From an uncultured Bacteroidales bacterium (GTDB taxonomy: Bacteria; Bacteroidota; Bacteroidia; Bacteroidales; JAADJA01): a stretch of DNA of 64,000 bases. Numbering within the stretch: position 1 is the stretch's first letter; the number at the start of each line of letters is the position of its first letter. Below are positions 3,786 to 63,953 of the stretch, in pieces. Below the pieces are notes generated by a model. The model saw nothing but the letters and a program-made list of their open reading frames with translations, did no database searches and was not told where the DNA came from. Where the stretch lies: NCBI GenBank assembly GCA_963761195.1, contig CAVXGA010000012.1, forward strand, positions 96,082 through 160,081, written 5' to 3'. Made by a program: the position numbers and the translations under genes.

Positions 3786-3795
3786 CTAATTTTGG

Positions 3796-3803
3796 TAATT
3801 TTG
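3796..3803 (+). promoter_or_regulatory. -7 promoter box TAatTTTG (a second copy lies at 3787-3794)
   Basis: Matches TAnnTTTG, 22 nt upstream of the ATG at 3825. Confidence 0.45.
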
Positions 3804-3824
3804 CAAACCATTAATAAAGTGTAT

Positions 3825-5067
3825 ATGGCTCAGATCATATTTTATATAATTATTGGGATTATTATTTTCGACTATATTCTGGAACGGATACTCGATTGGC
3901 TCAACAGTACGTATTGGAGCAATGAACTACCTCCCGAACTTGCCGGCATTTACGATGCGGAGAAATACAAAAAATCGCAGGATTACGAACGAGTGACCAC
4001 CCGTTTTTCGTTGCTTACAAGTTCATTAAGCATTATCGTTATGCTGCTCATGCTTTTCCTTAGCGGTTTTGCATGGCTCGATAATGTTGTACAGGCATTA
4101 TACGCAAAATCCCATCCTGATGGCACTGCTGTTTTTCGGGATACTGGGATTTGCTGCCGATATCCTGTCGACGCCATTTTCAGTTTACAGCACCTTTGTC
4201 ATCGAAGAAAAGTTCGGATTTAATAAAACAACTCCGAAAACCTTTGTTCTGGATAAGCTGAAAGGGTTATTTCTGGCGGCGATTATCGGTGGCGGACTGC
4301 TGGCTCTTGTCGTATGGATTTACATGATTTCAGGCTCATGGTTTTGGGTGATCGCCTGGGCTGTCATCAGCGTGTTTACTATTTTCATGACCATGTTCTA
4401 TTCAAACATCATTGTTCCTTTATTCAACAAGCAAACACCGCTTGAAGAAGGAAACCTGCGAACAGCCATCGAAGATTTTGCACATAAAGTCGGCTTTAAG
4501 CTTAAGAATATTTTTGTCATGGACGGTTCCAAACGCTCCACGAAGGCAAATGCCTATTTTACAGGTCTCGGCTCAAAGAAACGAATCGTACTTTTTGATA
4601 CACTGATCAAGGATCATACAACAGAAGAGCTTGTCGGAGTTTTGGCCCATGAAATTGGCCATTACAAGAAAAAGCATACGCTTACGGGAACCATTATTTC
4701 GCTTTTACAAACCGGACTGATGCTTTATATTTTATCGCTCTTTATTGGGAACCCGGTTTTATCGCAGGCGCTGGGTGCAAGCGAAGGCAGTTTTCACTTG
4801 GGTATTCTTGCATTCGGATTGCTGTACAGTCCCCTGTCGCTCATTCTCGGATTAATTATGAATATGATCTCCCGGAAAAATGAATTTGCTGCGGATCGTT
4901 ATGCAGGCGAAAATTATAAACCCAAACCCTTACAGGATGCATTAAAAAAGTTATCGGTTAATCATTTAAGCAATCTTCGCCCCCACCCTGCCTATGTATT
5001 CTTTTACTATTCGCATCCGCCGCTGCTGCAAAGACTGAAAGCACTGGAAAAGGTAACTCCAGCTTGA
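3825..5067 (+). pseudogene. M48 family (Ste24/HtpX-like) zinc metalloprotease, interrupted by a +1 frameshift near 4092
   Basis: HEIGHYKKKH (HExxH) sits in the 3' frame. The N-terminal frame (MAQIIFYIIIG...GFAWLDNVV) continues as RHYTQNPILMALLFFG only if one base (c at about 4092) is skipped. Confidence 0.8.
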
Positions 5068-8873: not shown

Positions 8874-9212
8874 TTATAAATTAAGTAATTCTTGAACTTC
8901 AGTTTTAAGTTTTGGTAGGTGATTAATCAGGATGCTCCAAATAAGATCATCTGAGATTTTATCATAACCATGTGCTATCCTGTTTCTTGTCCCAACAATT
9001 TTTTGCGCATTAACAAGTTCAAATTTCCTGTCCCTTTTAAGTATTCGGTTTGTAGCTTCTCCAATAATTTCGATATTGCGCTCAACAGCACGCTTAGTTT
9101 TTATGTCCTTAATATAGTTTTCAAATATCCTTGGTTTATCGGCAAAATAACTCTCAATCTCTTCAATGGATTGAATAATATCATACAACCATGTCTTTAT
9201 TTCATTATCCAT
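8874..9212 (-). CDS. hepT: HepT-like (DUF86) RNase toxin of a type VII MNT/HepT toxin-antitoxin pair
   Basis: Rx4HxY motif within TRNRIAHGYD. Overlaps the upstream MNT gene by 8 nt. Confidence 0.85.
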   Translation of the reverse strand: MDNEIKTWLYDIIQSIEEIESYFADKPRIFENYIKDIKTKRAVERNIEIIGEATNRILKRDRKFELVNAQKIVGTRNRIAHGYDKISDDLIWSILINHLPKLKTEVQELLNL

Positions 9213-9504
9213 AAATAAGTTGTTTGGATTGATCTATGGATTGCCGTAAATATGGATTTTTTATTGCTTTATCTTCCAACAAATCCACATCTCTATTGAA
9301 TAATCGTTCCAATGACTCTTTGAAATCGAAATAATTATCAGCATAATAATATAAGTCGACATCATTAAAATCTACTACAAAATCAATATCACTGGTTTTT
9401 CTGAATCTGCCAGTTAATACCGATCCAAAAGCAAATAGTTTACTCACCTTGTGTTTCTTACACAAATCATTAATAATTTCAATATTTCTATCAACAATAT
9501 CCAT
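9205..9504 (-). CDS. mntA: MNT nucleotidyltransferase antitoxin
   Basis: FGSVLTGRFRKTSDIDFVVDF, which is a GS...DxD minimal nucleotidyltransferase motif. Confidence 0.85.
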   Translation of the reverse strand: MDIVDRNIEIINDLCKKHKVSKLFAFGSVLTGRFRKTSDIDFVVDFNDVDLYYYADNYFDFKESLERLFNRDVDLLEDKAIKNPYLRQSIDQSKQLIYG

Positions 9505-12457: not shown

Positions 12458-14903
12458 AATAGTTTCTATCGGATTTAATAATGTGATCAATCATCAGAAA
12501 GAGTTGTCTCATTTGAAAAATACCATTCCTACGAGAATCACTCTTAAAAACATTGATATAGAACCGAATCCGGACAAAAAAACGGATTTGGCTGAAATCT
12601 TGTTTATTACCTCCTATCCACCAAGGGAGTGCGGTATAGCGACCTATTCACAGGATTTGATAAAATCCCTTAATAATAAATTCAGCAATTCCTTCTCTAT
12701 AAAAGTTTGTGCGCTGGAATCAGGAGATGCCAATTATCCATATCCTGAGGAAGTAAAATGTATTCTTAAAACATCCCTGGCTTCCGGATATGATAAACTG
12801 GCATTGACCATTAATAATGACAATCGCATCAAAATTGTTCTGATACAGCATGAGTTCGGCTTTTATAGATTGCAGGAACAAGCATTTATAAAGTTTTTAC
12901 ATAAACTTTCAAAACCGGTTGTTATTGTTTTTCATACCGTATTGCCACATCCTGATGAAGCATTAAAATCAAAGATACAAAGTATTGCGGCTGCCTGCGA
13001 GGCCATTGTTGTAATGACCCATATTTCGGAAGGGATTTTAACAAATGATTATGGATTGCCGGATCAAAAAATATCCGTGATAGCCCACGGTACTCATTTG
13101 GTCTCCCATTTAAGTAAGAAATTTTTAAAAAGTAAATATGGATTAAAAGGCAGGAAAGTCCTTTCAACATTTGGCCTGCTAAGTTCGGGAAAGAGTATTG
13201 AAACTACATTGGAAGCATTGCCGGCCATTATAAAAACCAGCCCCGAAGTCGTATTTCTGGTAATCGGCAAGACCCATCCCGAAGTTGTGAAGACAGAAGG
13301 AGAAAAATACAGGGAAATGCTTGAACAAAAAGTGAAACAATATGATCTTCAGGATCATGTGATATTTATTAATAAATATGTTGCATTACCTGAATTGCTC
13401 GAATATTTGCAGCTTACCGATATTTACCTGTTTACCACCAACGATCCGAACCAGGCCGTAAGCGGCACATTTGCCTATGCCATGAGCTGCGCCTGCCCAA
13501 TCATCTCCACCCCTATTCCTCATGCAAGGGAAATATTGACTGAGGATACCGGAATTATTTTTGATTTTCGCAACTCAGAACAATTGGCTAATGGCGTTAT
13601 ACGGTTACTCACCGATGATCCGTTGCGAAGGAATATCAGTACAAATACGCTGGAGAAAATCGTCTCCACTGCCTGGGAAAATTCTGCCGTTGCACATGCA
13701 ATGCTGTTCGAAAAAATTGCCGGAGAAAAAATTGTGCTGCAATATAATCTTCCGGCCATCAACCTGGACCACCTGAAACAAATGACTACGGATACCGGGA
13801 TCATTCAATTTTCAAAAATCAATCAACCCGATATCAGTAGCGGTTATACCTTAGATGATAATGCCAGAGCACTGGTAGCCATGTGCATGCACTTTAAACT
13901 GACTGGTGATGAGTCGAGTGTAGATTACATTGCAAAATATCTCGATTTTATAAAATATTGCCAGCAACCGGCAGGAAATTTTTTAAATTATGTAGATAAG
14001 GATAACAATTTTACCGAACAAAACAATGCTGTCAATTTGGATGATGCCAATGGAAGAGCTGTTTGGGCCCTGGGATATTTAGTGTCATTATCGAGCCTGC
14101 TGCCCGCGGAGATTATTTTTGAGGCTAATGAAATCATTCAAAAAACAATTCCTCACATAGAAACAATGCATTCAACACGGGCTATGGCCTTTGCTATAAA
14201 AGGATTGTATTTCTATCATACGAGCATAAAACTGCCTGAACAGTTTAACCTGATTAAAACACTGGCAAATCGTTTGGTTCAGATGTATAAACATGAATCG
14301 GATGAAAAATGGGAATGGTTTGAAACCTATCTCACCTATGCCAACAGTATATTGCCCGAATCCATGTTATATGCCTGGTTATTAACCGGAGATACTGTTT
14401 ACAAAGACATCGCCAGATCATCGTTTAATTTTCTTTTATCGCAAACCTTTAATGAAAACGGGATAGAAGTAATTTCGAATAAAGACTGGCTGCAAAAGGG
14501 AGAGAATGCAGGGGGTTTTGGCGAACAACCTATTGATGTTGCCTATACCATAATGACTTTAAGCGCTTTTTATGACGAATTTATGGATGATAGCTATCGC
14601 CTGAAAATGGAAACGGCCTTCAACTGGTTTTTAGGGAACAACCGATTGCATCAGATTATTTATAATCCTTGCACCGGGGGTTGCTACGACGGGCTGGAAG
14701 AAAAACATGTGAACATAAATCAGGGTGCAGAGTCAACGATAAGTCATCTGATAGCAAGATTTACAATTGAAAAGTATAAAATTTCACAGACCCGACTTAA
14801 AACTCAATTGCGAAATCATATCAGGGTGCATAAAAAAAACAGCGAATTTGTATATTCGACCGTTGATAAAAATGAACCGGGTGCTCATTTTTTCATTTCA
14901 TAA
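12447..14903 (+). CDS. GT4-family glycosyltransferase fused to a C-terminal domain of about 400 aa with unknown function
   Basis: The N-terminal roughly 420 aa look like GT-B/GT4 (FITSYPPRECGIATYSQDL, a GKTHPEVV-type region). The C-terminal half has no motif I recognise. The start overlaps the GH130 stop. Confidence 0.65.
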   Translation: MKNKIVSIGFNNVINHQKELSHLKNTIPTRITLKNIDIEPNPDKKTDLAEILFITSYPPRECGIATYSQDLIKSLNNKFSNSFSIKVCALESGDANYPYPEEVKCILKTSLASGYDKLALTINNDNRIKIVLIQHEFGFYRLQEQAFIKFLHKLSKPVVIVFHTVLPHPDEALKSKIQSIAAACEAIVVMTHISEGILTNDYGLPDQKISVIAHGTHLVSHLSKKFLKSKYGLKGRKVLSTFGLLSSGKSIETTLEALPAIIKTSPEVVFLVIGKTHPEVVKTEGEKYREMLEQKVKQYDLQDHVIFINKYVALPELLEYLQLTDIYLFTTNDPNQAVSGTFAYAMSCACPIISTPIPHAREILTEDTGIIFDFRNSEQLANGVIRLLTDDPLRRNISTNTLEKIVSTAWENSAVAHAMLFEKIAGEKIVLQYNLPAINLDHLKQMTTDTGIIQFSKINQPDISSGYTLDDNARALVAMCMHFKLTGDESSVDYIAKYLDFIKYCQQPAGNFLNYVDKDNNFTEQNNAVNLDDANGRAVWALGYLVSLSSLLPAEIIFEANEIIQKTIPHIETMHSTRAMAFAIKGLYFYHTSIKLPEQFNLIKTLANRLVQMYKHESDEKWEWFETYLTYANSILPESMLYAWLLTGDTVYKDIARSSFNFLLSQTFNENGIEVISNKDWLQKGENAGGFGEQPIDVAYTIMTLSAFYDEFMDDSYRLKMETAFNWFLGNNRLHQIIYNPCTGGCYDGLEEKHVNINQGAESTISHLIARFTIEKYKISQTRLKTQLRNHIRVHKKNSEFVYSTVDKNEPGAHFFIS

Positions 14904-49635: not shown

Positions 49636-50592
49636 ATGCACGACAGAACGTACGAATTAAAAAAAGCATCATGGATCGGAATCCTGGGAAACACAGCCCT
49701 TGCTATTCTGAAAATTGTGATCGGTTTCATTGCCGGTAGTTTCGCCGTTATTGCCGATGGCATTGACACCACTACCGATATTCTTTCCTATTTCATCACG
49801 CTTTTTACCTCGCGGATTATTTCCAAACCTCCTGATACCAAATATCCTTACGGTTATAAAAAAGCGGAAACCTCGGCCACCAAAATACTGGCGTTTATTA
49901 TCTTCTTTGCTGGGGCGCAATTGCTTATCTCGACAGTTTCAAGGCTGCTGTCAGGGCAGCATCGGGAAATGCCTTCAATCATAGCTATTTATGTAACGCT
50001 GTTCAGTATTGCAGGAAAAGCAATTCTTTATTCCTGGCAATTCCGGATGGGAAAAAAAACCGAAAGCTCCATGATCATTGCCAATGCTAAAAACATGCGG
50101 AATGACATTCTCATATCCTTTTCTGTTCTGACCGGGCTGATCTTTACCTTTTGGCTACAAATGCCTGTTTTTGACACCATCATCGCCCTTGCCGTGAGCC
50201 TGTGGATCATTGTGGTCGCATTCGGCATTTACCGCGAATCGAACCTTGAGATGATGGACGGCGTAAAAGACACCACCATTTATTTTAAAATATTCAAGTC
50301 GGTCGATCAGGTCGAAGGCGCACACAATCCCCACCGGATCCGGGTTAGAAAACTGGGCAATATGCTTACAATTTCACTGGATATTGAAGTAGATCAGGAG
50401 ATAAAAGTGAGCGAATCGCATGAAATAGCAGTGTGCGTGGAAGAACGGCTGAAAGCAAACATTGACAATATTTACGATATCATGGTTCATGTAGAACCAA
50501 TCGGAAATATTGAACAAAATGAAACATTCGGGATTTCGAAAGAAATTATTCAGGATGAACACAAACCCTCAAAAGCCCGGTTTATCAAATGA
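49636..50592 (+). CDS. Cation diffusion facilitator family transporter
   Basis: Six TM segments containing ADGIDTTTD-type motifs, plus a cytoplasmic C-terminal domain. Confidence 0.8.
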   Translation: MHDRTYELKKASWIGILGNTALAILKIVIGFIAGSFAVIADGIDTTTDILSYFITLFTSRIISKPPDTKYPYGYKKAETSATKILAFIIFFAGAQLLISTVSRLLSGQHREMPSIIAIYVTLFSIAGKAILYSWQFRMGKKTESSMIIANAKNMRNDILISFSVLTGLIFTFWLQMPVFDTIIALAVSLWIIVVAFGIYRESNLEMMDGVKDTTIYFKIFKSVDQVEGAHNPHRIRVRKLGNMLTISLDIEVDQEIKVSESHEIAVCVEERLKANIDNIYDIMVHVEPIGNIEQNETFGISKEIIQDEHKPSKARFIK

Positions 50593-53500
50593 CAGATAAA
50601 TTTTCGATCATCCCTTTCAGGCAATTGGTCTCGATTGTATTCGCTGAACTCGGCAAAGATGAGTTCTTCGGCATACCACGGGCGATTTTTTTCAATCCCT
50701 CATCCTCCGATCCTTTCCGGATGAACCGTTACGGTGCACTGCTGGAAACGCCTTTAGGGGTGGCCGCCGGTCCCCATACACAGCTTTCACAAAATATCAT
50801 CGCTGCATGGCTTTGCGGTGCCCGGTACATCGAATTAAAAACCATTCAAACACTGGATGAACTATCGGTTTCGAAACCCTGTATCGACATGCAGGATGAA
50901 GGTTATAACTGCGAATGGTCGCAAGAACTGAAAATACATGAATCCTTTGATCAGTATCTCAATGCCTGGATTTTAATCCATCTCCTGAAACATAAATTCG
51001 GGTGGATTGAAGACAAAACTTCCGGAACAATTTTCAATATGAGTGTCGGTTATAACCTGGAAGGGATCATGAACCCGAATGTGCAATGGTTTTTTGAGAA
51101 AATGAAAAACTGCAGCATCGAGAAACAAAGGAAGATTGATGAAATCAGTGATTTATATCCTGAAATAACAGAGATTCCTATTTCTGACTGCATTTCCAAT
51201 AATGTTACTTTATCTACCATGCATGGCTGTCCGCCGGATGAAATAGAAAAGATCGGGACCTACCTGATTGAAGAAAAAAAGTTACATACAGTCATTAAAC
51301 TCAATCCGACCTTACTTGGCAAAGATTTGTTAAGAGAAATACTGACGAACAGTGGATTTGATATAGAGGTTCCGGATCTTGCATTTGAGCATGATCTTAA
51401 ATATCCGGAGGCTGTTTCGATCATCAGAAATTTACAAAAGAAAGCCGAAAAACATCAACTGCATTTCGGATTGAAACTGACGAACACCCTTAGAAACATC
51501 GAATCAGAAAGATGTTTTACCTGCGTCAGAAAAAATGATCTACATGAGTGGAAGGGCGCTTCATCCGGTCTCGGTTCAGTTGGCTAATAAACTGCAAAAA
51601 GACTTTGGCGGAAAGCTTAATATCTCCTTTTCAGGTGGTGCAAATGCTTTTAATTTTCCTGATCTTGTTGCCTGCGGGCTGACACCCGTTACTGTTTGTT
51701 CCGACCTGTTAAAACCCGGAGGTTACGGGCTACTGACCCAATATATTACAAATTTGAGAGAGGCTTTTCGGGATGCGGATGCCGGGTCAATACCAGAATT
51801 CATCCAATATAAAAGCAACCGTAAAGTTGAAGATTGGAGAAAAGCTGGCTTATTGAATCTTTCAGAATATGCCTGTAAAGTCCTGGATTCAAAGGCCTGT
51901 AAAAAGACTGAGATCCATGATCCGACAATAAAAACACACCGAAAGCTCGATAATTTCGATTGTATACAAGCACCCTGTGTGGATGCCTGTCCCACAAACC
52001 AGGATATTCCCGATTACCTGTATTATACAGCAAACTCTGATTTTCAAAAGGCTTTTGAAGTAATAATGCGCAGAAACCCGTTCCCTTACACAACCGGAAT
52101 GATCTGTGATCATCTTTGTCAGAGCAAATGCACACGGATGAATTATGAAGAAGCGCTTCAGATTAGGGAAATCAAGCGTTTTATCGCGGAAAATAAAGAG
52201 AGGGATTTTTCACCTGTTGTAAATCCAGGATTCGGTTTAAAGGTCGCCATAATTGGTGCCGGTCCATCGGGATTATCTGCTGCTTATTTTCTTGTACTTG
52301 CGGGTTTTAAGGTTGATATCTATGAAACAAAGGATCAGCCTGGGTGGAATGGTCTCCGGAGCGATCCCTGCGTTCAGGCTCACCAATAAAGCCTTTATAA
52401 AAGATACTGAGTTGCTTGAAAAGATGGGAATAAAAATACATTACAACATAAAAATTGACCGGGAAAATTTTACACAAATAAAGAACTCAAACGATTTTGT
52501 TTACATCGCTGCCGGGGCTCAGCGATCAAAAAAGTTTGAAATCAATGGAATCGAAGCAGAAGGCATTTTAGATCCCCTGCCATTTTTATTCGACATCAAA
52601 CGAGGTAAAAAGGTGGATGTCGGGAATAAAGTAGTCATCATCGGTGGTGGGAACACGGCAATGGATGCGGCAAGGACTGCCTGGCGGCTTGTAGGTCAAA
52701 ATGGGAATGTTACGATAATTTATCGCCGGACCATCAGGGAAATGCCCGCTGATTCCGGTGAGATCAATGCGGTAAGGGAAGAAGGCGTGGAAATTATTGA
52801 ACTCGCACTTCCGGTGAAAATTAATGAGGAGAACGGAAAAGTCAGGTCAATCACCTGCATTCGGATGAAACAAGGGTTACCAGATGCTTCCGGCAGACCT
52901 AAACCCGTACCTGTCCCGGGTTCTGAATTTGAAATTTTCTGTGATACGGTCATTCCCGCTATCGGGCAGGAAACGGATTTTGACTTTATTGATAAAGAAT
53001 TACTTGAAACCGTTCCTGGTGTTTATGAAACCAAAATTCCGGGAGTTTTTATCGGTGGTGATGCACTTCGGGGTGCTTCCACTGCCATAAACGCCATTGG
53101 TGACGGTAGAAAAGCTGCCGCGAAGATCATCGAAAAAGCCGGAGTTAATTTTGAAATACCATTGGCCCGTTTACGCAATCCTAAAACTTTGGCAGAGCAC
53201 ATGACAAGCCGGATGATTAAAAGATTTCCCGGGCACACGCACGAAATTGAACCAGGAGATCGCAAAAACTTCAGCCTTGTAACCGGAACATTTACCAGTA
53301 TGGAAGCAATTGAGGAGGCCTCGCGATGTCTTTTGTGTGATGAAGTTTGCAATATTTGTGTGACAGTTTGCCCTAACCTCGCTAATTATTCCTATGAAAT
53401 TAATCCAACCAAATATTGCCTGAATAAGATCACACATCAAAATGGAAAGCAGGAAATCATACAGGATGAGCTTTTCGAGGTAAACCAAAAATATCAGATA

Positions 53501-53881
53501 CTCCACATTGCCGACTGGTGCAACGAATGCGGCAATTGCACAACCTTTTGTCCGACTGCAGGTTCTCCCTATAAAAATAAACCGCATCTCTACCTGAGCC
53601 GTAAAGCTTTTGAACAGGACGATGATTGCTATTTTTTGGTTAATAAAAATGGGGACAGTGAACTTATTTATAAGGAGAAAGGAATTACACATCATTTGAC
53701 TGAGCAAGAAAATGCGTATCTTTATTACGTTGATGGAATCAGTATCTCTATTGATAAAAAGACATTCGAAATCATTCGTTTGGAAACAGGAGCTGAAACA
53801 CGTGATTTTCGGCTTCACAAAGCTGCAGAAATGAGCATAGTCCTGCAGGGTGCAAAGAAAATTTACAACACTATTAATTAA
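50589..53881 (+). pseudogene. ygfK: YgfK-like flavoprotein (DHOD/DPD-like TIM barrel + Glt-small-subunit-like FAD/NAD domains + 4Fe-4S), with two frameshifts (about 51492 and about 52342-52344)
   Basis: PLGVAAGPHTQLSQNIIAAWLCGARYIELKTIQ, MIYMSGRALHP, VAIIGAGPSGLSAAYFL, VVIIGGGNTAMDAART, and C-terminal CDEVCNICVTVCPN and CNECGNCTTFCPT. The three listed ORFs join if one base is skipped at each junction. Confidence 0.8.
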
Positions 53882-57022: not shown

Positions 57023-58297
57023 ATGAAAAGAAATTTACTATTTCCCTTGACCAAAATAATGGCCGCATTTGGATTGTACATCTTACTCAGTGCATTTATA
57101 AACGCAGAAACAAAGAAACCCAAATCAACTGCCGGAGGTCTTTTGACATTCACCATACGGACAGTTACCGACAATGGCACTTATTCACCCAAGCATGTAT
57201 TAGCCATTTGGATTGAAGATGCCGGCGGGTTTGTTAAAACCAGGAAAGCAATGGCAAACCAGCGTAAACAATACCTATATACCTGGAAAACCGCGTCGAA
57301 TTATAATGTTGTTGATGCAATTACAGGTGTTACATTAACAAGTCATCAAACCCATACGGTTACCTGGAACTGTACCGATCTTTCGGGAAATATTGTTCCC
57401 GACGGAGATTATTCGGTTTGGGTGGAGTTTACGGATAAACATTCTCAGGGGCCTTTGTATAACCTTACGTTCACTAAAGGTACTCAGGCGCAATCGATGA
57501 CGCCGGCTGATGAAACCTATTTTAAAGACATTCAACTCGATTTTGTACCTTATGTCGCAGATTTCGATTCAGATACAACTGAAATCTGCCAGAATGGAAC
57601 AGTTACTTTTACAGATCAGTCAATCGGTGCAACATCCTGGTCATGGAATTTTGGTTCGGGCGCCTCGCCTGCTTCTGCATTAACAGCGGGTCCGCATAAT
57701 GTAATCTATTCCTCGCCAGGTCAAAAAACTGTAACCTTAACTATTAATGGTTCTGTTACTGAAACAAAGCTCAACATGATAACCGTCAATCCTTCACCTA
57801 CCGCAGAATTTTACTTTTCCGTTTCCGGATTCACTGCGGAGTTTTCGAACAACTCATCAAATGCATCGTCCTATTTGTGGGATTTCGGTGATGGAAATTC
57901 AAGTACTGAAATTAACCCTATGCACATTTATGCAGACGCCGGAATATATCAGGTTTCTTTAACAGCTACCTTTATAAGTTGCGATGATGTTGTATATCAT
58001 GATGTTTCTGTCCCTATTGTGGGGATTAGCAAACAGATAGTTGACAATCCTGCAACAGTTTTATTCTATCCGAATCCATCAACCGGATATATCAACATCA
58101 ACATAAATCAGAAAGATTTAAGCCCGGTGAAATTGACCGTATTTAATTCAATCGGTAAAATAATTCAAACAACCACGGAAAAAACTGATTTAACTGAAAT
58201 TATTAATCTTGATATTTCCGATCAACCAAAAGGGATCTACTTTATCAAACTCGAAAGCGCAAGCCTGAATACAAGCCAAAAAATCATGATTTATTAG
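57023..58297 (+). CDS. T9SS-secreted protein with two PKD domains and a DUF2271-like N-terminal domain
   Basis: WSWNFGSGASP and YLWDFGDGNSS are the PKD cores. The T9SS CTD shows LFYPNPSTGYININ...GIYFIKLES. Confidence 0.7.
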   Translation: MKRNLLFPLTKIMAAFGLYILLSAFINAETKKPKSTAGGLLTFTIRTVTDNGTYSPKHVLAIWIEDAGGFVKTRKAMANQRKQYLYTWKTASNYNVVDAITGVTLTSHQTHTVTWNCTDLSGNIVPDGDYSVWVEFTDKHSQGPLYNLTFTKGTQAQSMTPADETYFKDIQLDFVPYVADFDSDTTEICQNGTVTFTDQSIGATSWSWNFGSGASPASALTAGPHNVIYSSPGQKTVTLTINGSVTETKLNMITVNPSPTAEFYFSVSGFTAEFSNNSSNASSYLWDFGDGNSSTEINPMHIYADAGIYQVSLTATFISCDDVVYHDVSVPIVGISKQIVDNPATVLFYPNPSTGYINININQKDLSPVKLTVFNSIGKIIQTTTEKTDLTEIINLDISDQPKGIYFIKLESASLNTSQKIMIY

Positions 58298-58701: not shown

Positions 58702-59235
58702 TTATTTCTTTACCATTGGATCAGGATGCGCAATTAATGCTTTCTTTTCTTCGAAATTAAATGGTTTGTCAAACGGGTTTTCTTTATTATGACATTTTTC
58801 ACAAACTTTCTGATCCGGAACAATCATTCCTTTTGTCTTGGCTAATGCAAGATCCTTCATGATGGTATTTGTTTTATATGCACTTCCCGGACCGTGGCAA
58901 GATTCGCAGGAGACACCTTCAGCTATTGTTATTCCTGCCATCTGGCTATCCTTTAGACTCCCTGCTGTAGAATGGCATTTTATGCAACTGGCTTCTTTGG
59001 TTGGATCTGCAATGTTATGTGCTTTTGCATAAGCTAACGATTTCTCATTGCTCAACGTTTTCATTGCGTTGGCATGCAAACTTTCCGACCAAATTTTATA
59101 CTGTTGACCCGTAGCAGGTTTGTTGTGGCAAATTTTACACTTTGCGGCACCAACATACTGGAAGTCTTGTGCTAAAAGAACGCTACCGCTGATAAACACC
59201 AGACCCAGAATTAGAAATAGATTTTTACTTTTCAT
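58702..59235 (-). CDS. Periplasmic tetraheme cytochrome c (cytochrome c554-like family)
   Basis: Signal peptide and four CXXCH sites: CKICH, CIKCH, CESCH, CEKCH. Confidence 0.8.
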   Translation of the reverse strand: MKSKNLFLILGLVFISGSVLLAQDFQYVGAAKCKICHNKPATGQQYKIWSESLHANAMKTLSNEKSLAYAKAHNIADPTKEASCIKCHSTAGSLKDSQMAGITIAEGVSCESCHGPGSAYKTNTIMKDLALAKTKGMIVPDQKVCEKCHNKENPFDKPFNFEEKKALIAHPDPMVKK

Positions 59236-59777: not shown

Positions 59778-62577
59778 ATGAAAAATAAAAATTTTAAAAT
59801 TAACAGAAGCTTTGTACTTCTCATTTACATAGCATTTTTTTTATCGTCAAACACAATTTTCGCTCAGTCGAATGATGATTGTCTTGCGTGTCACGAAGAT
59901 CCCGACCTGACCGCAGTGATACAGGGTAAAACAGTTTCCGTGTTTGTCAACAAATCCATATTGGCTAATTCAGTGCATAAAGATGTATTGTGTGCCTCCT
60001 GCCATCCCGATGCCCTGGTTGAAGAATTTCCTCATCCGGAAGAATTGAAACCGGTGAATTGTGGCAGTTGTCATGAAATACCTGAACAGCAATTTGAAAA
60101 AGGAATTCACGGGCAGGCACTGCAATTAAAAGCATTGTACGCACCAAATTGCAAAGAATGTCATGGTACGCACAACATTTTAGCTTCATCGTCCCCTAAA
60201 TCGAGGACTTATAAAATGAATATTCCAGTATTGTGTGGTAAATGCCACCGTGAAGGTGCCCCTGTGCAAAGAACATACAATATTAATGAACATAACATCC
60301 TCGAAAATTACAGTCAAAGTATTCATGGTGAAGGATTGTTTAAAAAAGGCTTGATCGTATCGGCAACCTGTAATGATTGTCATGGAAATCATTTAATATT
60401 ACCGCATACCAGTCCGAATTCGACAATTTCAGTCAATAATATTGCAAGTACATGCATGAAATGCCATGCAGAAATTGAGAAGGTTCATACTAAAATTATC
60501 AAAAAAGAGCTCTGGGAAAAAGAACCGGGTGCGATTCCGGCCTGTACTGATTGCCATCTTCCCCACAAGGTGGATGTTCAAAATATAGTTATAACGATTT
60601 CTGACCAAGCATGCTTGAAATGCCATGATCAGGTTGGTGTTCACAAAACCGTAAACGATTCTGTCATTTCTTTAAGGGTGACCAAAGATGACATTTCAAA
60701 TTCTGTTCATAAAAATATCCCCTGTGTAAAATGTCATTCAGATGTATCAACGCATTTGAAGCGTCCCTGCGAAACTGCCGGAAAAGTTGATTGCTCAAAT
60801 TGCCATGCTGATATTTCCAATATATATAATGAAAGCGGACATGGCCAAGCCTATTTTAGAAAAGATAAAAATGCTCCCTATTGCACAGATTGTCATGGAA
60901 CGCATAAGGTGAAATCGAGGTATGATGATACCAGTCCTACGTACAGAAGTGCCATTCCTACCCTTTGTGGTAAATGTCATAGAAAAAATGGGAAAGCTGT
61001 TGAAAATACTTCGTTAAAAGAAGTGGATGCTTTTCGCGATTATTCGTCAAGTGTACACGGCAGAGGATTAACAGAAAAGGGATTGTTGCCGAGTGCCGTA
61101 TGTACAGATTGTCACACGACGCATTACATTTTAAAAGAATCCGATGAACGTTCTTCCGTCAATCCTAAAAATATTCCCGCAACATGTGCTAAATGCCACA
61201 AGGGTATCTATAATGATTATATCAGCGGTGACCATTCCATACTGAAAGATGATAAAAAGCATAAATTTCCGACCTGTGCCGACTGTCATACAGCACATGG
61301 AATAACTGAAATTACCGAGGATAAATTCATGAATGAAGTCACACACCAGTGCGGCACTTGTCATGAAGAAGTTTCTAAAACATATATGGAAACGTACCAT
61401 GGTAAAGCTTACCAACTGGGTTATTTAAAAGCGGCGAAATGCTCAGACTGTCATGGCGCGCATAAAATTTATGATGTAAACAATCCGAAATCATCAGTTG
61501 GATCTCAAAATATTGTTGAAACCTGCAAAAAATGTCATCCGGATGCGAATAAGAGGTTTACGGGATATTTAACACATGCAACCCATCACAACAAAACCAA
61601 ATACCCAGTGTTGTATTTTACATTTTGGGGGATGACCGCGTTGCTGGTGGGGGTTTTCGGATTTTTCGGAATCCACCTGTTGCTATGGTTACCACGATCG
61701 ATACAAACGGTAAGGAAACGTAAACAGTTACGTGAATCCATTGGAGATAAATATTATATTCGACGGTTTACAAGAGGTCAACGCATAACCCATATTTTCG
61801 TTATTTTAAGCTTCATCATGCTTGCACTAACAGGTATGATGCTGAAGTTTGCCGGTATGGAATGGGCCAGCAGGTTAGCTGGTTTATTAGGAGGTGTAAA
61901 TATTGCCGGAAATATTCATCGCTTTGCGGCATTTATCACATTTGGCTATTTTACATTTCATATTACATCACTGATCCAGATGAAGGTTAAGCAACATATA
62001 CCTATTTGGAAATTCATTTTCGGAAAGAATTCATTAATGTTCACAAAACAGGATCTGCTTGATTTCAGGGATACAATAAAATGGTTCTTAGGCAGAGGCG
62101 TCCGTCCTGAATATGGTCGATGGACTTACTGGGAAAAATTTGATTATTTCGCTGTATTTTGGGGAGTCGCCGTGATAGGCTTTTCAGGATTAATTCTATG
62201 GTTCCCGGAATTTTTTACAAAATTATTTCCTGGCTGGCTAATAAATGTTGCGATGATCATACACAGTGATGAAGCTTTGCTTGCAGTAGGATTCATCTTC
62301 ACCATACACTTTTTTAACACGCACCTCCGTCCGGATGCGTTCCCAATGGATACCGTAATTTTTACCGGAACCGTTCCATTTCGAAGAATATAAGCTTGAT
62401 CGGCCCCGTGAATATGAAGAATTAAAAAGATCAGGCCGACTGAAAAAAGTGATTATTAAACTGGAAGAAAAAAACAAATGGGAGAAAGTTATCAAAGTTT
62501 TTGGTTATTTTTTCCTAACTGTAGGTCTTTCTCTGGTTGTATTGATTATTTATTCCATGCTATTTGGATATAAATAA
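59778..62577 (+). pseudogene. 19-heme cytochrome c fused to a FdnI/HydC-type membrane cytochrome b domain (CbcL-like quinol oxidoreductase). A single frameshift at about 62382 truncates the last roughly 60 aa
   Basis: 19 CXXCH sites counted between aa 35 and 587. The C-terminal region has about 5 TM helices with conserved His ([26 protein letters not shown]). After VPF, skipping c62382 restores [20 protein letters not shown] plus a final TM, ending at the TAA at 62575-62577. Confidence 0.8.
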
Positions 62578-63090
62578 AGACCTTTCATAAAAGAGCGTAC
62601 TGTTCATCTATGCTTTCCTTTTATAAATCTTCTAATCAGCATTCATCATCTTGATTATTGGTTAAGTGTGTTTTGTTTTAATGGCAAATACTTTCCTAAT
62701 CTAAAATTCTACAAGTATTTTAAGGATAACCAGCATTATCAGAACATTCTACCAAATAATTGTCCGTTAGTTTAACTTAAATCTTTACTTGTTAGGGTAA
62801 AACAGTTGAAATTTATTAGCAAAAAAGCTGCATTATATCATTATAATAACAGTTTTATATCATAGTATCTGCATTGTCCATATGTATGTATATATCTACA
62901 TTTATGCCAATTTAAAATAAACACAATTGTAATATGTTCGTACATTTAATTAACTCATTTCTTTGTTTGCGGCGCTTATTACTTTCGGGGTTTTTATATT
63001 GCAGAGTGACTGCCAATTATCACTATAATTAAAGTATCAAAATAGCGACAGTTAATCACAGGAACTATTTATTTGAAAGATAAATTTACT

Positions 63091-63690
63091 ATGAAACATA
63101 AAAATCACACAAGTCCATTAGTACCGGTTATTTTATTCGTGTTTCTCTTTGTTCTGCTTTGGGGTTGCAGTAATAATAAAAAATCAGAATCCATTGAAAC
63201 CAAAGATGAAATTGCTCAGGTAAATATTGCAAAAGATGAATCTTCCGACGCTTTTAAAGATAACGAAATTGCAATAGAAGCACCCCCTTTCACAGATGGT
63301 ATATTTCCCTGTAATGATTGTCATTCAGATCAGGTACCTAATCCGGTAAGAAGAAAATTGGTTGATATGCACGATGATATTGATGCGATATTTAACCACG
63401 ATAGTGAAAACCGCTGGTGCCTTGACTGCCATGATTTGAATCAGCGGGATTCTTTAAAACTTGCCAGTGGAAAACGCATAGGATTTGACGAATCGTACAA
63501 ATTATGCGGACAATGTCATGGAGATAAATTAAGAGATTGGAAAGTGGGGGTTCATGGAAAACGGACAGGTGAATGGAATGGGAAAAAACAATATCTTTTA
63601 TGCGTGCATTGCCATAATCCGCATTCGCCTAAATTTAAACCCTTAAAGCCGCTACCTCCTCCGGTACGGCAGGAAGATATTCATAAATAA
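63091..63690 (+). CDS. Tetraheme c-type cytochrome lipoprotein (cytochrome c3/NrfB-like)
   Basis: Lipobox LLWGC and four CXXCH sites: CNDCH, CLDCH, CGQCH, CVHCH. Confidence 0.75.
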   Translation: MKHKNHTSPLVPVILFVFLFVLLWGCSNNKKSESIETKDEIAQVNIAKDESSDAFKDNEIAIEAPPFTDGIFPCNDCHSDQVPNPVRRKLVDMHDDIDAIFNHDSENRWCLDCHDLNQRDSLKLASGKRIGFDESYKLCGQCHGDKLRDWKVGVHGKRTGEWNGKKQYLLCVHCHNPHSPKFKPLKPLPPPVRQEDIHK

Positions 63691-63704: not shown

Positions 63705-63953
63705 ATGATAATTATGCAGAAAACTGATACTGATTCAAGAAGAGATTTCTTAAAAAAGATACCTTTTGCACTTGCATCAATTAGTGCTTTTTCGCTTTTT
63801 AGATTTAAAAAATCGAATCATAATTCTGAATTAAAATTTAACACATTATCTAAGTCTGAAGCCGATGAAATTATTAAAAATGAAGAGTTTCCGGCCTCGA
63901 CTTACCTTAATCCGGCAGCGGCGCCTGTCGCAGAAAAAAATTTAAAGGGGTAA
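63705..63953 (+). CDS. Small protein with a twin-arginine (Tat) signal
   Basis: SRRDFLKKIPFALASISAF. Only 82 aa and contains no Cys. A new ORF (MQEKE...) opens at 63986 and runs off the window. Confidence 0.45.
   Translation: MIIMQKTDTDSRRDFLKKIPFALASISAFSLFRFKKSNHNSELKFNTLSKSEADEIIKNEEFPASTYLNPAAAPVAEKNLKG

Follow-up and report, generated by a model that had tools for sequence, protein, structure and literature searches.

CbcL of Geobacter sulfurreducens (GSU0274) and its Desulfuromonadales orthologues consist of a signal peptide, a multihaem c-type cytochrome domain and six membrane helices with an FdnI/HydC-like b-type core. CbcL is required for the use of low-potential extracellular acceptors; its nine c haems were measured as bis-His, and it reduces PpcA (PMC9129911). 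The same fusion is found in MtrH of Rhodoferax ferrireducens and in MtoC of Dechloromonas and Gallionella, which have nine haems and whose genes stand in mtrAB or mtoAB porin-cytochrome clusters. Homologues of CbcL, MtrH and MtoC are known from 15 phyla, with 3 to 23 CXXCH motifs, lengths of 416 to 1034 aa and six helices (Zhong & Shi 2018, PMC6295460). Table S2 of that study lists a 913-aa protein with 19 motifs from Bacteroidetes bacterium HGW-Bacteroidetes-4 (PKP08298.1), together with two Ignavibacteria proteins.

Here, a gene of this type was analysed in a 64,000-nucleotide stretch of DNA from an uncultured Bacteroidales bacterium (contig CAVXGA010000012.1 of assembly GCA_963761195.1, positions 96,082 to 160,081; hereafter the window). 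Its product carries 19 c-haem motifs and a membrane b-type domain. Judged by full-length alignment, it is a true homologue of Geobacter-type CbcL and belongs to the CbcL/MtrH/MtoC family. The gene had been singled out in an earlier note, which was made by reading the window without database searches. Coordinates of the gene, its parts and its neighbours are collected in Table 1.

Haem and membrane domains of the protein

The open reading frame (ORF) as assembled (59778-62393) holds 19 CXXCH motifs; they begin at aa 35, and the last occupies aa 583-587. The variants CX3CH, CX4CH and CXXCK were looked for in the same ORF and none was found. The motif spacings are 37,23,30,28,45,28,30,23 / 37,23,30,28,45,28,30,25 / 30,28, which corresponds to an 8 + 8 + 3 arrangement. 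Modules 1 and 2 aligned without gaps, with 82 of 231 residues identical (z = 58 relative to shuffled sequence), and haems 17-19 aligned with haems 3-5 of the module (27 of 63 residues identical). The earlier note had placed 19 motifs in one periplasmic domain (aa 35-587), had arranged them as 8 + 8 + 3 and had described a recurring C..CHG.H ... C.KCH unit. The motif count agrees with the first statement, the spacing repeat and the ungapped module alignment confirm the second, and the unit is visible in the module alignments. Residues 31-592 also hold 18 conserved histidines outside the motifs, followed by His600 and His603; these are sufficient for bis-His ligation of all 19 haems to be possible.

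An AlphaFold model of the haem domain (pLDDT 80) was compared with solved structures using Foldseek. The best match, octahaem hydroxylamine oxidoreductase 6t5e, was weak (E 0.013, TM-score 0.23-0.29). That family likewise has eight haems per unit, but the window protein shows no significant sequence match to it and no sign of a catalytic haem, and membership is not claimed. Family models for HmcA, NrfB, DmsE and NapC gave sub-threshold matches at the level of the motifs only, and membership of these families was rejected. A sequence search of the PDB found no close solved relative of the window protein; the best match, in a profile search, was 28pb_A, a 'cytochrome c' of 278 aa (E 4e-13), and FdnI reached an E value of only 0.78.

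The N-terminus is a cleavable signal peptide, the region of lowest conservation among homologues, rather than a membrane anchor, and PF03264 (NapC/NirT/NrfH/CymA) gave no match in the protein. After deletion of one base (see below), six membrane helices were predicted at residues 614-638, 673-691, 712-733, 791-809, 822-843 and 911-929; the ORF as assembled retains five of them. The earlier note had described an FdnI/HydC-like b domain with about five helices; the domain is real, and the helix number is six in the repaired protein. According to hydropathy and charge, the K/R-rich loops face the cytoplasm and the haem-c domain lies on the periplasmic side, in agreement with the positive-inside rule.

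The b domain scored 27.1 bits with Pfam PF01292, under the family threshold of 30.1. The NCBIfam model FdoI/FdnI gamma (formate dehydrogenase gamma) matched residues 660-886 of P0004, a full-length relative 82% identical to the window protein, at an E value of about 1e-11; scores with the NCBIfam FdnI/FdoI equivalogs were far under their cutoffs. For an AlphaFold model of residues 590-868 (pLDDT 79), the sole significant PDB match by Foldseek was FdnI, the cytochrome b556 of E. coli formate dehydrogenase-N (1kqf_C, E 3e-4, probability 1.0, TM-score 0.65 over 217 columns). The next related fold was hydrogenase-1 cytochrome b (4gd3_A). From these profile and fold comparisons, the b domain is a divergent relative of FdnI and not an FdnI orthologue. 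The two have the four-helix fold and all four haem-ligand histidines in common. FdnI forms a subunit of its own (217 aa), which accepts electrons from an FeS subunit and passes them to quinone, whereas in the window protein an extra helix joins the b domain to the c haems and a sixth helix follows it.

In a profile alignment, His672 corresponds to FdnI His18, His714 to His57 and His829 to His155, and His844 lies within one residue of His169. The FdnI sequence used for this alignment is presumably that of 1kqf_C, with which it agrees in length. The pattern of ligands is that of FdnI/HydC-type b cytochromes, with one histidine in helix 1, one in helix 2 and two in helix 4. Seven histidines of the membrane domain (His600, 633, 672, 714, 829, 844 and 849) are invariant in 72 sequences, 35 of which are Geobacter-type CbcLs, and so are common to CbcL and the 19-haem group. 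The conserved histidines that the earlier note had seen in this domain thus include the four FdnI-type ligands, none of which is lost.

Three of the invariant positions lie beyond the FdnI-type ligands: His600, His633 and His849 (nt 61575-61577, 61674-61676 and 62322-62324), which are kept from Bacteroidota to Geobacter CbcLs. His633 and His849 both stand close to the cytoplasmic end of a helix, in the region where quinone is bound in FdnI. The three could form a quinone-site ligand, a ligand of a third cofactor or the distal ligand of haem 19.

Table 1. Positions in the window of the CbcL-family gene, its parts and its neighbours.
Feature	Position (nt)	Strand	Remarks
CbcL-family cytochrome gene	59778..62577	+	932 aa after deleting one base at ~62380-62382; 871 aa as assembled, stop at 62393
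Signal peptide, aa 1-29	59778..59864	+	Hydrophobic core aa 11-29, ending ...IFAQ; from hydropathy
Haem module 1, haems 1-8, aa 31-278	59868..60611	+	Motif count and self-alignment
Haem module 2, haems 9-16, aa 279-524	60612..61349	+	Tandem copy of module 1
Terminal three-haem unit, haems 17-19, aa 525-592	61350..61553	+	Equivalent to haems 3-5 of the module
Extra membrane helix TM0, aa 614-638	61617..61691	+	Holds invariant His633; leads the chain from periplasm to cytoplasm
FdnI/HydC-like four-helix dihaem-b core, aa 661-850	61758..62327	+	NCBIfam, Foldseek, profile alignment, invariant His
Frameshift site TTTC	62379..62382	+	One base more than intact homologues
C-terminal 64 codons, +1 frame	62383..62577	+	Sixth helix aa 911-929 (nt 62509-62565) and stop codon; aligns with CbcL C-terminus
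c554-like tetrahaem cytochrome, 177 aa, signal peptide	58702..59235	-	Pfam PF13435, 4 CXXCH; divergent; candidate periplasmic redox partner
Tetrahaem cytochrome, probably a lipoprotein	63073..63690	+	4 CXXCH; first gene of a tetrahaem / Tat-exported FeS / NrfD module running past the window
82-aa ORF with twin-arginine (Tat) signal	63705..63953	+	Copy of the N-terminus of the downstream FeS protein

Family membership and haem-module series

The relative P0004 was aligned with the whole 'c- and b-type cytochrome L' of Desulfuromonas carbonis (E 3e-125, 36% identity over 660 aa), residues 308-932 pairing with CbcL residues 2-614 and all six helices being covered. The window ORF itself matched the CbcL orthologue of Geotalea uraniireducens at an E value of 9e-113. 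The likeness to CbcL that the earlier note had proposed therefore extends over the full length of CbcL. The sequence features that define the family (PMC6295460) were found: a signal peptide, a periplasmic domain with a CXXCH count between 3 and 23, six helices in the repaired protein and conserved membrane histidines. Pfam sees in the window protein only generic multihaem domains and the sub-threshold PF01292, and for this reason such proteins are usually annotated as 'cytochrome c3 family protein'.

The window protein and CbcL come from different phyla and differ in size (932 aa and 19 haems as against 619 aa and 9 haems) and in the spacing of the haems next to the membrane (25,30,28 as against 43,28). 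In this last respect the window protein resembles MtrH and MtoC, which agree with it in the last three haems and in the interval from these to the first helix. No porin-cytochrome cluster of the mtrAB or mtoAB type is present in the window.

The last three haems and the membrane domain were used as a query against 1.84 billion cluster representatives. This search returned 4361 relatives, 654 of them at E <= 1e-30, and also recovered nine-haem proteins with the motif pattern of Geobacter CbcL, followed by their named relatives, among them the D. carbonis and G. uraniireducens proteins. In a scan with one genome per species, at least 590 genomes contained a relative. The best 80 matches covered nearly the full query at 47-83% identity. 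Their hosts were Bacteroidales, Prolixibacteraceae (including the isolate Maribellus sp. YY47), Calditrichota, Ignavibacteriales/Melioribacter and Aminicenantes, and further Latescibacterota, KSB1, Acidobacteriota, Zixibacteria and Gemmatimonadota. Exactly 19 motifs were present in 70 of 78 recovered homologues, from many phyla.

The listed Bacteroidetes protein PKP08298.1 belongs to the same subclass as the window protein: 17 of its 18 motif intervals are equal, the remaining one being 43 in one protein and 45 in the other, and it has six predicted helices. Apart from the frameshift described below, the window protein shows no material difference from the 19-motif homologues of Zhong & Shi 2018. 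Because PKP08298.1 in their Table S2 has the same spacing, the 19-haem subclass is already catalogued, though not studied (PMC6295460); a literature search on the '19 haem' form returned nothing specific. The earlier note had implied that such a protein is rare, which does not hold, given this listing and the spread of the form across phyla.

Motif spacing within the family follows a series. Members with 3 haems have the spacing 30,28, and members with 11 haems have 37,23,30,28,45,28,30,25,30,28. The 19-haem members carry the eight-haem module twice and then the three-haem unit, and in the 22-haem form the 11-haem unit occurs twice. Within the haem domain, it is the membrane-proximal three-haem unit that the wider family has in common. 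The family thus grows by module duplication, through 3, 11, 19 and 22 haems. Eleven is the commonest count (41 of the 150 best representatives), and from this and the spacing series the window protein is an 11-haem form in which one eight-haem module was duplicated in tandem. The 22-haem case, P0121 (1005 aa), repeats the 11-haem spacing exactly twice and represents an independent, larger module duplication.

Extra base and gene neighbourhood

Positions 62376-62388 of the window read CCA TTT C GAA GAA. At the same place the intact homologues in the related loci L058 and L004 read CCT TTT GAG and CCA TTT GAA, respectively. More than 100 database homologues at 66-84% identity have lengths of 930-934 aa. 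No identical record was found when the 871-aa ORF and the downstream tetrahaem protein were looked up by exact sequence; for the c554-like protein the sole match was on one 1.2-kb contig, and run ERR11571143 contains an identical gene. The gene span given in the earlier note is right for the repaired gene, and not as a single open frame, since the remainder after the stop is read in the +1 frame; the note had no more than hinted at this frameshift.

The 64 codons after the shift were compared with those of L001, a syntenic relative, and gave a dN of 0.07, a dS of 2.2 and a dN/dS of about 0.03. These codons are conserved and are therefore translated now or were so until very recently. The extra base is most likely an assembly error, and the organism accordingly probably produces the whole protein of 932 aa.

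At least four one-base frameshifts were counted in three conserved genes of the window (3792-5067, 50589-53881 and 62379-62382). A gene for an M48 peptidase (3792-5067) is split by a one-base insertion at about 4100. A gene for a 1094-aa Fer4_20/Pyr_redox_2 oxidoreductase (50589-53881) is split twice by one-base insertions and is intact in L001. The assembly thus looks prone to one-base insertions, and the practical lesson is that other seemingly truncated genes of this window should be distrusted.

In the 64-kb window, the genes for c-type cytochromes are the CbcL-family gene and the two flanking tetrahaem genes only. Both of the latter had been pointed out in the earlier note and are real, with four CXXCH motifs each. 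Promoter and terminator scans around the CbcL-family gene gave nothing beyond chance level. The region downstream of the window was viewed in the syntenic relatives L001 and L058. There, genes follow for a tetrahaem cytochrome, a Tat-exported FeS protein and an NrfD-type membrane protein, a trio present twice in L058, and for a DUF2339 membrane protein; L058 also has an ImcH-like gene some 9 kb downstream. In neither relative was a gene for a catalytic subunit of a reductase (NrfA, MccA or molybdopterin) found within 10 kb downstream. A standard nitrite, sulfite or tetrathionate reductase operon, which the earlier note had named as a context that could account for the gene, therefore does not explain the locus.

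Gene context was surveyed in 84 related loci, over 10 kb around the CbcL-family gene, or 7 kb for the clustered gene set described below. A c554-like tetrahaem gene was near the target in 37 of the 84, and an ImcH-like gene in 31. The ImcH-like proteins, of 500 aa, match PF03264 and share their motif spacing with GSU3259 and with the ImcH homologues listed for Draconibacterium and Melioribacter (PMC6295460). In the isolate Maribellus sp. YY47 (L024) an intact orthologue of the CbcL-family gene stands beside the ImcH-like gene. About 20-26 of the 84 loci, mostly from Prolixibacteraceae (L014-L032 and others), share an ordered gene set from about -4.5 kb to +2.5 kb. It consists of genes for a Crp/Fnr regulator, a hexahaem lipoprotein with a collagen-like Gly-X-Y N-terminus, a monohaem lipoprotein, a DUF5777 beta-barrel, a PhsC-like cytochrome b, the target, an ImcH-like protein and a c554-like protein. 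From its gene content this set is a candidate electron-export locus of Prolixibacteraceae and their allies. Clusters like cbcBA, with 'thiosulfate reductase-like' b subunits, have been described from Prolixibacter and Caldithrix (Joshi et al.).

A cluster of seven genes is known from a Bacteroidota genome for which 39-fold enrichment on an anode was reported (Ouboter et al., PMC8258643). Its ImcH-like protein is 42% identical to that of locus L028, its c554-like protein (JNFKJAOJ_00297) is 35% identical to the c554-like neighbour in the window, and it also contains a collagen-like hexahaem lipoprotein. Another protein of the cluster, JNFKJAOJ_00295 (the genome being of Bacteroidota UBA10030), is likewise a fusion of a multihaem c domain to an FdnI-like b domain, 29% identical to the window protein over 704 aa. 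Its gene has ImcH-like, c554-like and hexahaem-lipoprotein genes nearby, as at many 19-haem loci. It differs in having 13 haems and a b domain of another subgroup, 48% identical to stand-alone 246-aa FdnI-like proteins. The link that these similarities suggest between the 19-haem gene and electrode respiration is circumstantial.

Three further features of the window were recorded. The Tat-signal ORF of about 80 aa stands just upstream of a 299-aa Tat-exported FeS protein with a similar N-terminus (RRDFLK...KFKTLSKSEA.EIIKNE), and this duplication is kept in L001 (13851-14090 and 14123-15022). A secreted protein with DUF2271, PKD and type-IX-secretion sorting domains is encoded at 57023-58297, between the PALP enzyme genes and the cytochrome genes, and is syntenic in L001 and L058. 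Genes for a HepT-like ribonuclease and a nucleotidyltransferase at 8874-9504 (- strand) overlap by 8 nt and look like a HepT/MNT toxin-antitoxin pair.

Proposed function, alternatives and meaning

Taken together, the comparisons suggest that the gene probably encodes an inner-membrane cytochrome of the CbcL/MtrH/MtoC family that oxidises quinol and passes electrons to periplasmic or extracellular acceptors, that it is likely made at full length and that the extra base is probably an assembly error. Judging from homology with CbcL of Geobacter and FdnI of E. coli, menaquinol would be oxidised near the b haem on the cytoplasmic side. Electrons would cross the membrane through the two b haems, enter the c chain at haem 19 and move outward along it to a periplasmic acceptor, for which the c554-like tetrahaem cytochrome is the leading candidate. 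From this carrier they would reach periplasmic or extracellular terminal acceptors. If the quinone site is cytoplasmic, as in FdnI, the reaction would add nothing to the proton gradient, which would agree with the higher yield of Geobacter cells that lack cbcL.

Several observations weigh against this assignment. The 64-kb window shows no outer-membrane conduit. Sequence does not reveal in which direction electrons flow, and according to Zhong & Shi no feature separates quinol-oxidising from quinone-reducing family members (PMC6295460). The extra base also occurs at the same codon boundary in L001 (at about 12491-12503), an independent assembly with 77% DNA identity, and random error offers no explanation for this. 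In L001 a second extra base lies about 120 nt further downstream in the same gene, so both of its shifts fall within the last 200 nt, and the other called genes of L001 look intact. That the gene is truly frameshifted in this organism is on this evidence conceivable but somewhat unlikely; the product would be either an 871-aa protein without the sixth helix or a decaying pseudogene, or else the full protein would be made by +1 ribosomal frameshifting at UUU-C. UUU-pyrimidine sites are reportedly prone to +1 shifts. A lesser and doubtful possibility is that the shared extra base marks a conserved +1 frameshift that would control synthesis of the sixth helix. Long-term decay is ruled out by the dN/dS of the shifted tail. 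Programmed frameshifting was judged unlikely because CGA is not a rare codon here, because L001 has UUA rather than UUU at the site and because a second, non-slippery shift would be required in L001. At least three other one-base insertions in conserved genes of the window also speak for an error, as does the result of two scans of JGI metagenomes, in which no homologue with the extra base was found (the second scan gave one unrelated high-GC contig). In both assemblies the base can be read as an extra T after CCA (CCA-TTTC for CCA-TTC in the window, CCA-TTAC for CCA-TAC in L001) and lies 2 nt past a common palindrome, GGAAC-N-GTTCC, a position that would suit a context-specific long-read error.

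Two further alternatives concern the direction and the destination of the electrons. The protein might work in reverse as a quinone reductase, with electrons from a periplasmic or extracellular donor such as Fe(II), a cathode or a reduced shuttle passing along the haem chain to the quinone pool, as has been proposed for MtoC of Fe(II) oxidisers. MtoC and MtrH are members of the same family, the window protein shares the spacing of its last haems with them and not with Geobacter CbcL, and FdnI itself reduces quinone. We nevertheless consider this direction unlikely, since ImcH homologues are reported from Fe(III) reducers only (PMC6295460) and an ImcH-like gene recurs at more than a third of the loci surveyed, since the hosts are mostly anaerobic heterotrophs and since the recurrent neighbours are other cytochromes and the DUF5777 beta-barrel (no search aimed at mtoAB or cyc2 was made). 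The protein might also be a general periplasmic distributor which, like CymA in Shewanella, oxidises quinol and supplies soluble reductases for nitrite, sulfur compounds or peroxide. This would fit the neighbours in the window and its closest relatives, which are tetrahaem/FeS/NrfD modules and not a porin-cytochrome conduit, and the presence of the DUF5777 barrel and the hexahaem lipoprotein in only about a quarter of the loci. It appears quite improbable in view of the missing catalytic subunit within 10 kb downstream in L001 and L058, and because 19 haems far exceed what is needed to reach a soluble partner.

A more speculative extension of the quinol-oxidase assignment, which we hold to be rather doubtful, is that the haem domain forms a rigid chain of about 10-15 nm (a length estimated from published multihaem structures) that would span most of the periplasm and dock directly on the DUF5777 barrel and the collagen-like hexahaem lipoprotein. 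If true, this would provide a shuttle-free electron route from inner to outer membrane in Bacteroidota and allied phyla, with the number of modules (3, 11, 19 or 22 haems) tuned to the width of the cell envelope. The earlier note had already suggested a putative wire spanning the periplasm, with respiration of metals or electrodes as one possible role.

The window locus is an ordinary member of a subclass that is already listed and is widespread, also among sediment bacteria, and the additions made here are modest. They comprise the series of module duplications, the invariant histidines beyond the FdnI-type ligands and the observation that ImcH-like and c554-like genes are often linked to the target. 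The series of 3, 11, 19 and 22 haems is a natural experiment on chain length and electron delivery. For the step of extracellular electron transfer at the inner membrane few markers can be recognised, CbcL-type proteins among them, and the routine label 'cytochrome c3 family protein' misses the b domain and hides possible mineral or electrode respiration. If the 19-haem form is a working quinol oxidase, many uncultured Bacteroidales, Calditrichia, Ignavibacteria and Acidobacteriota of sediments and the subsurface would be equipped for respiration of minerals or electrodes.

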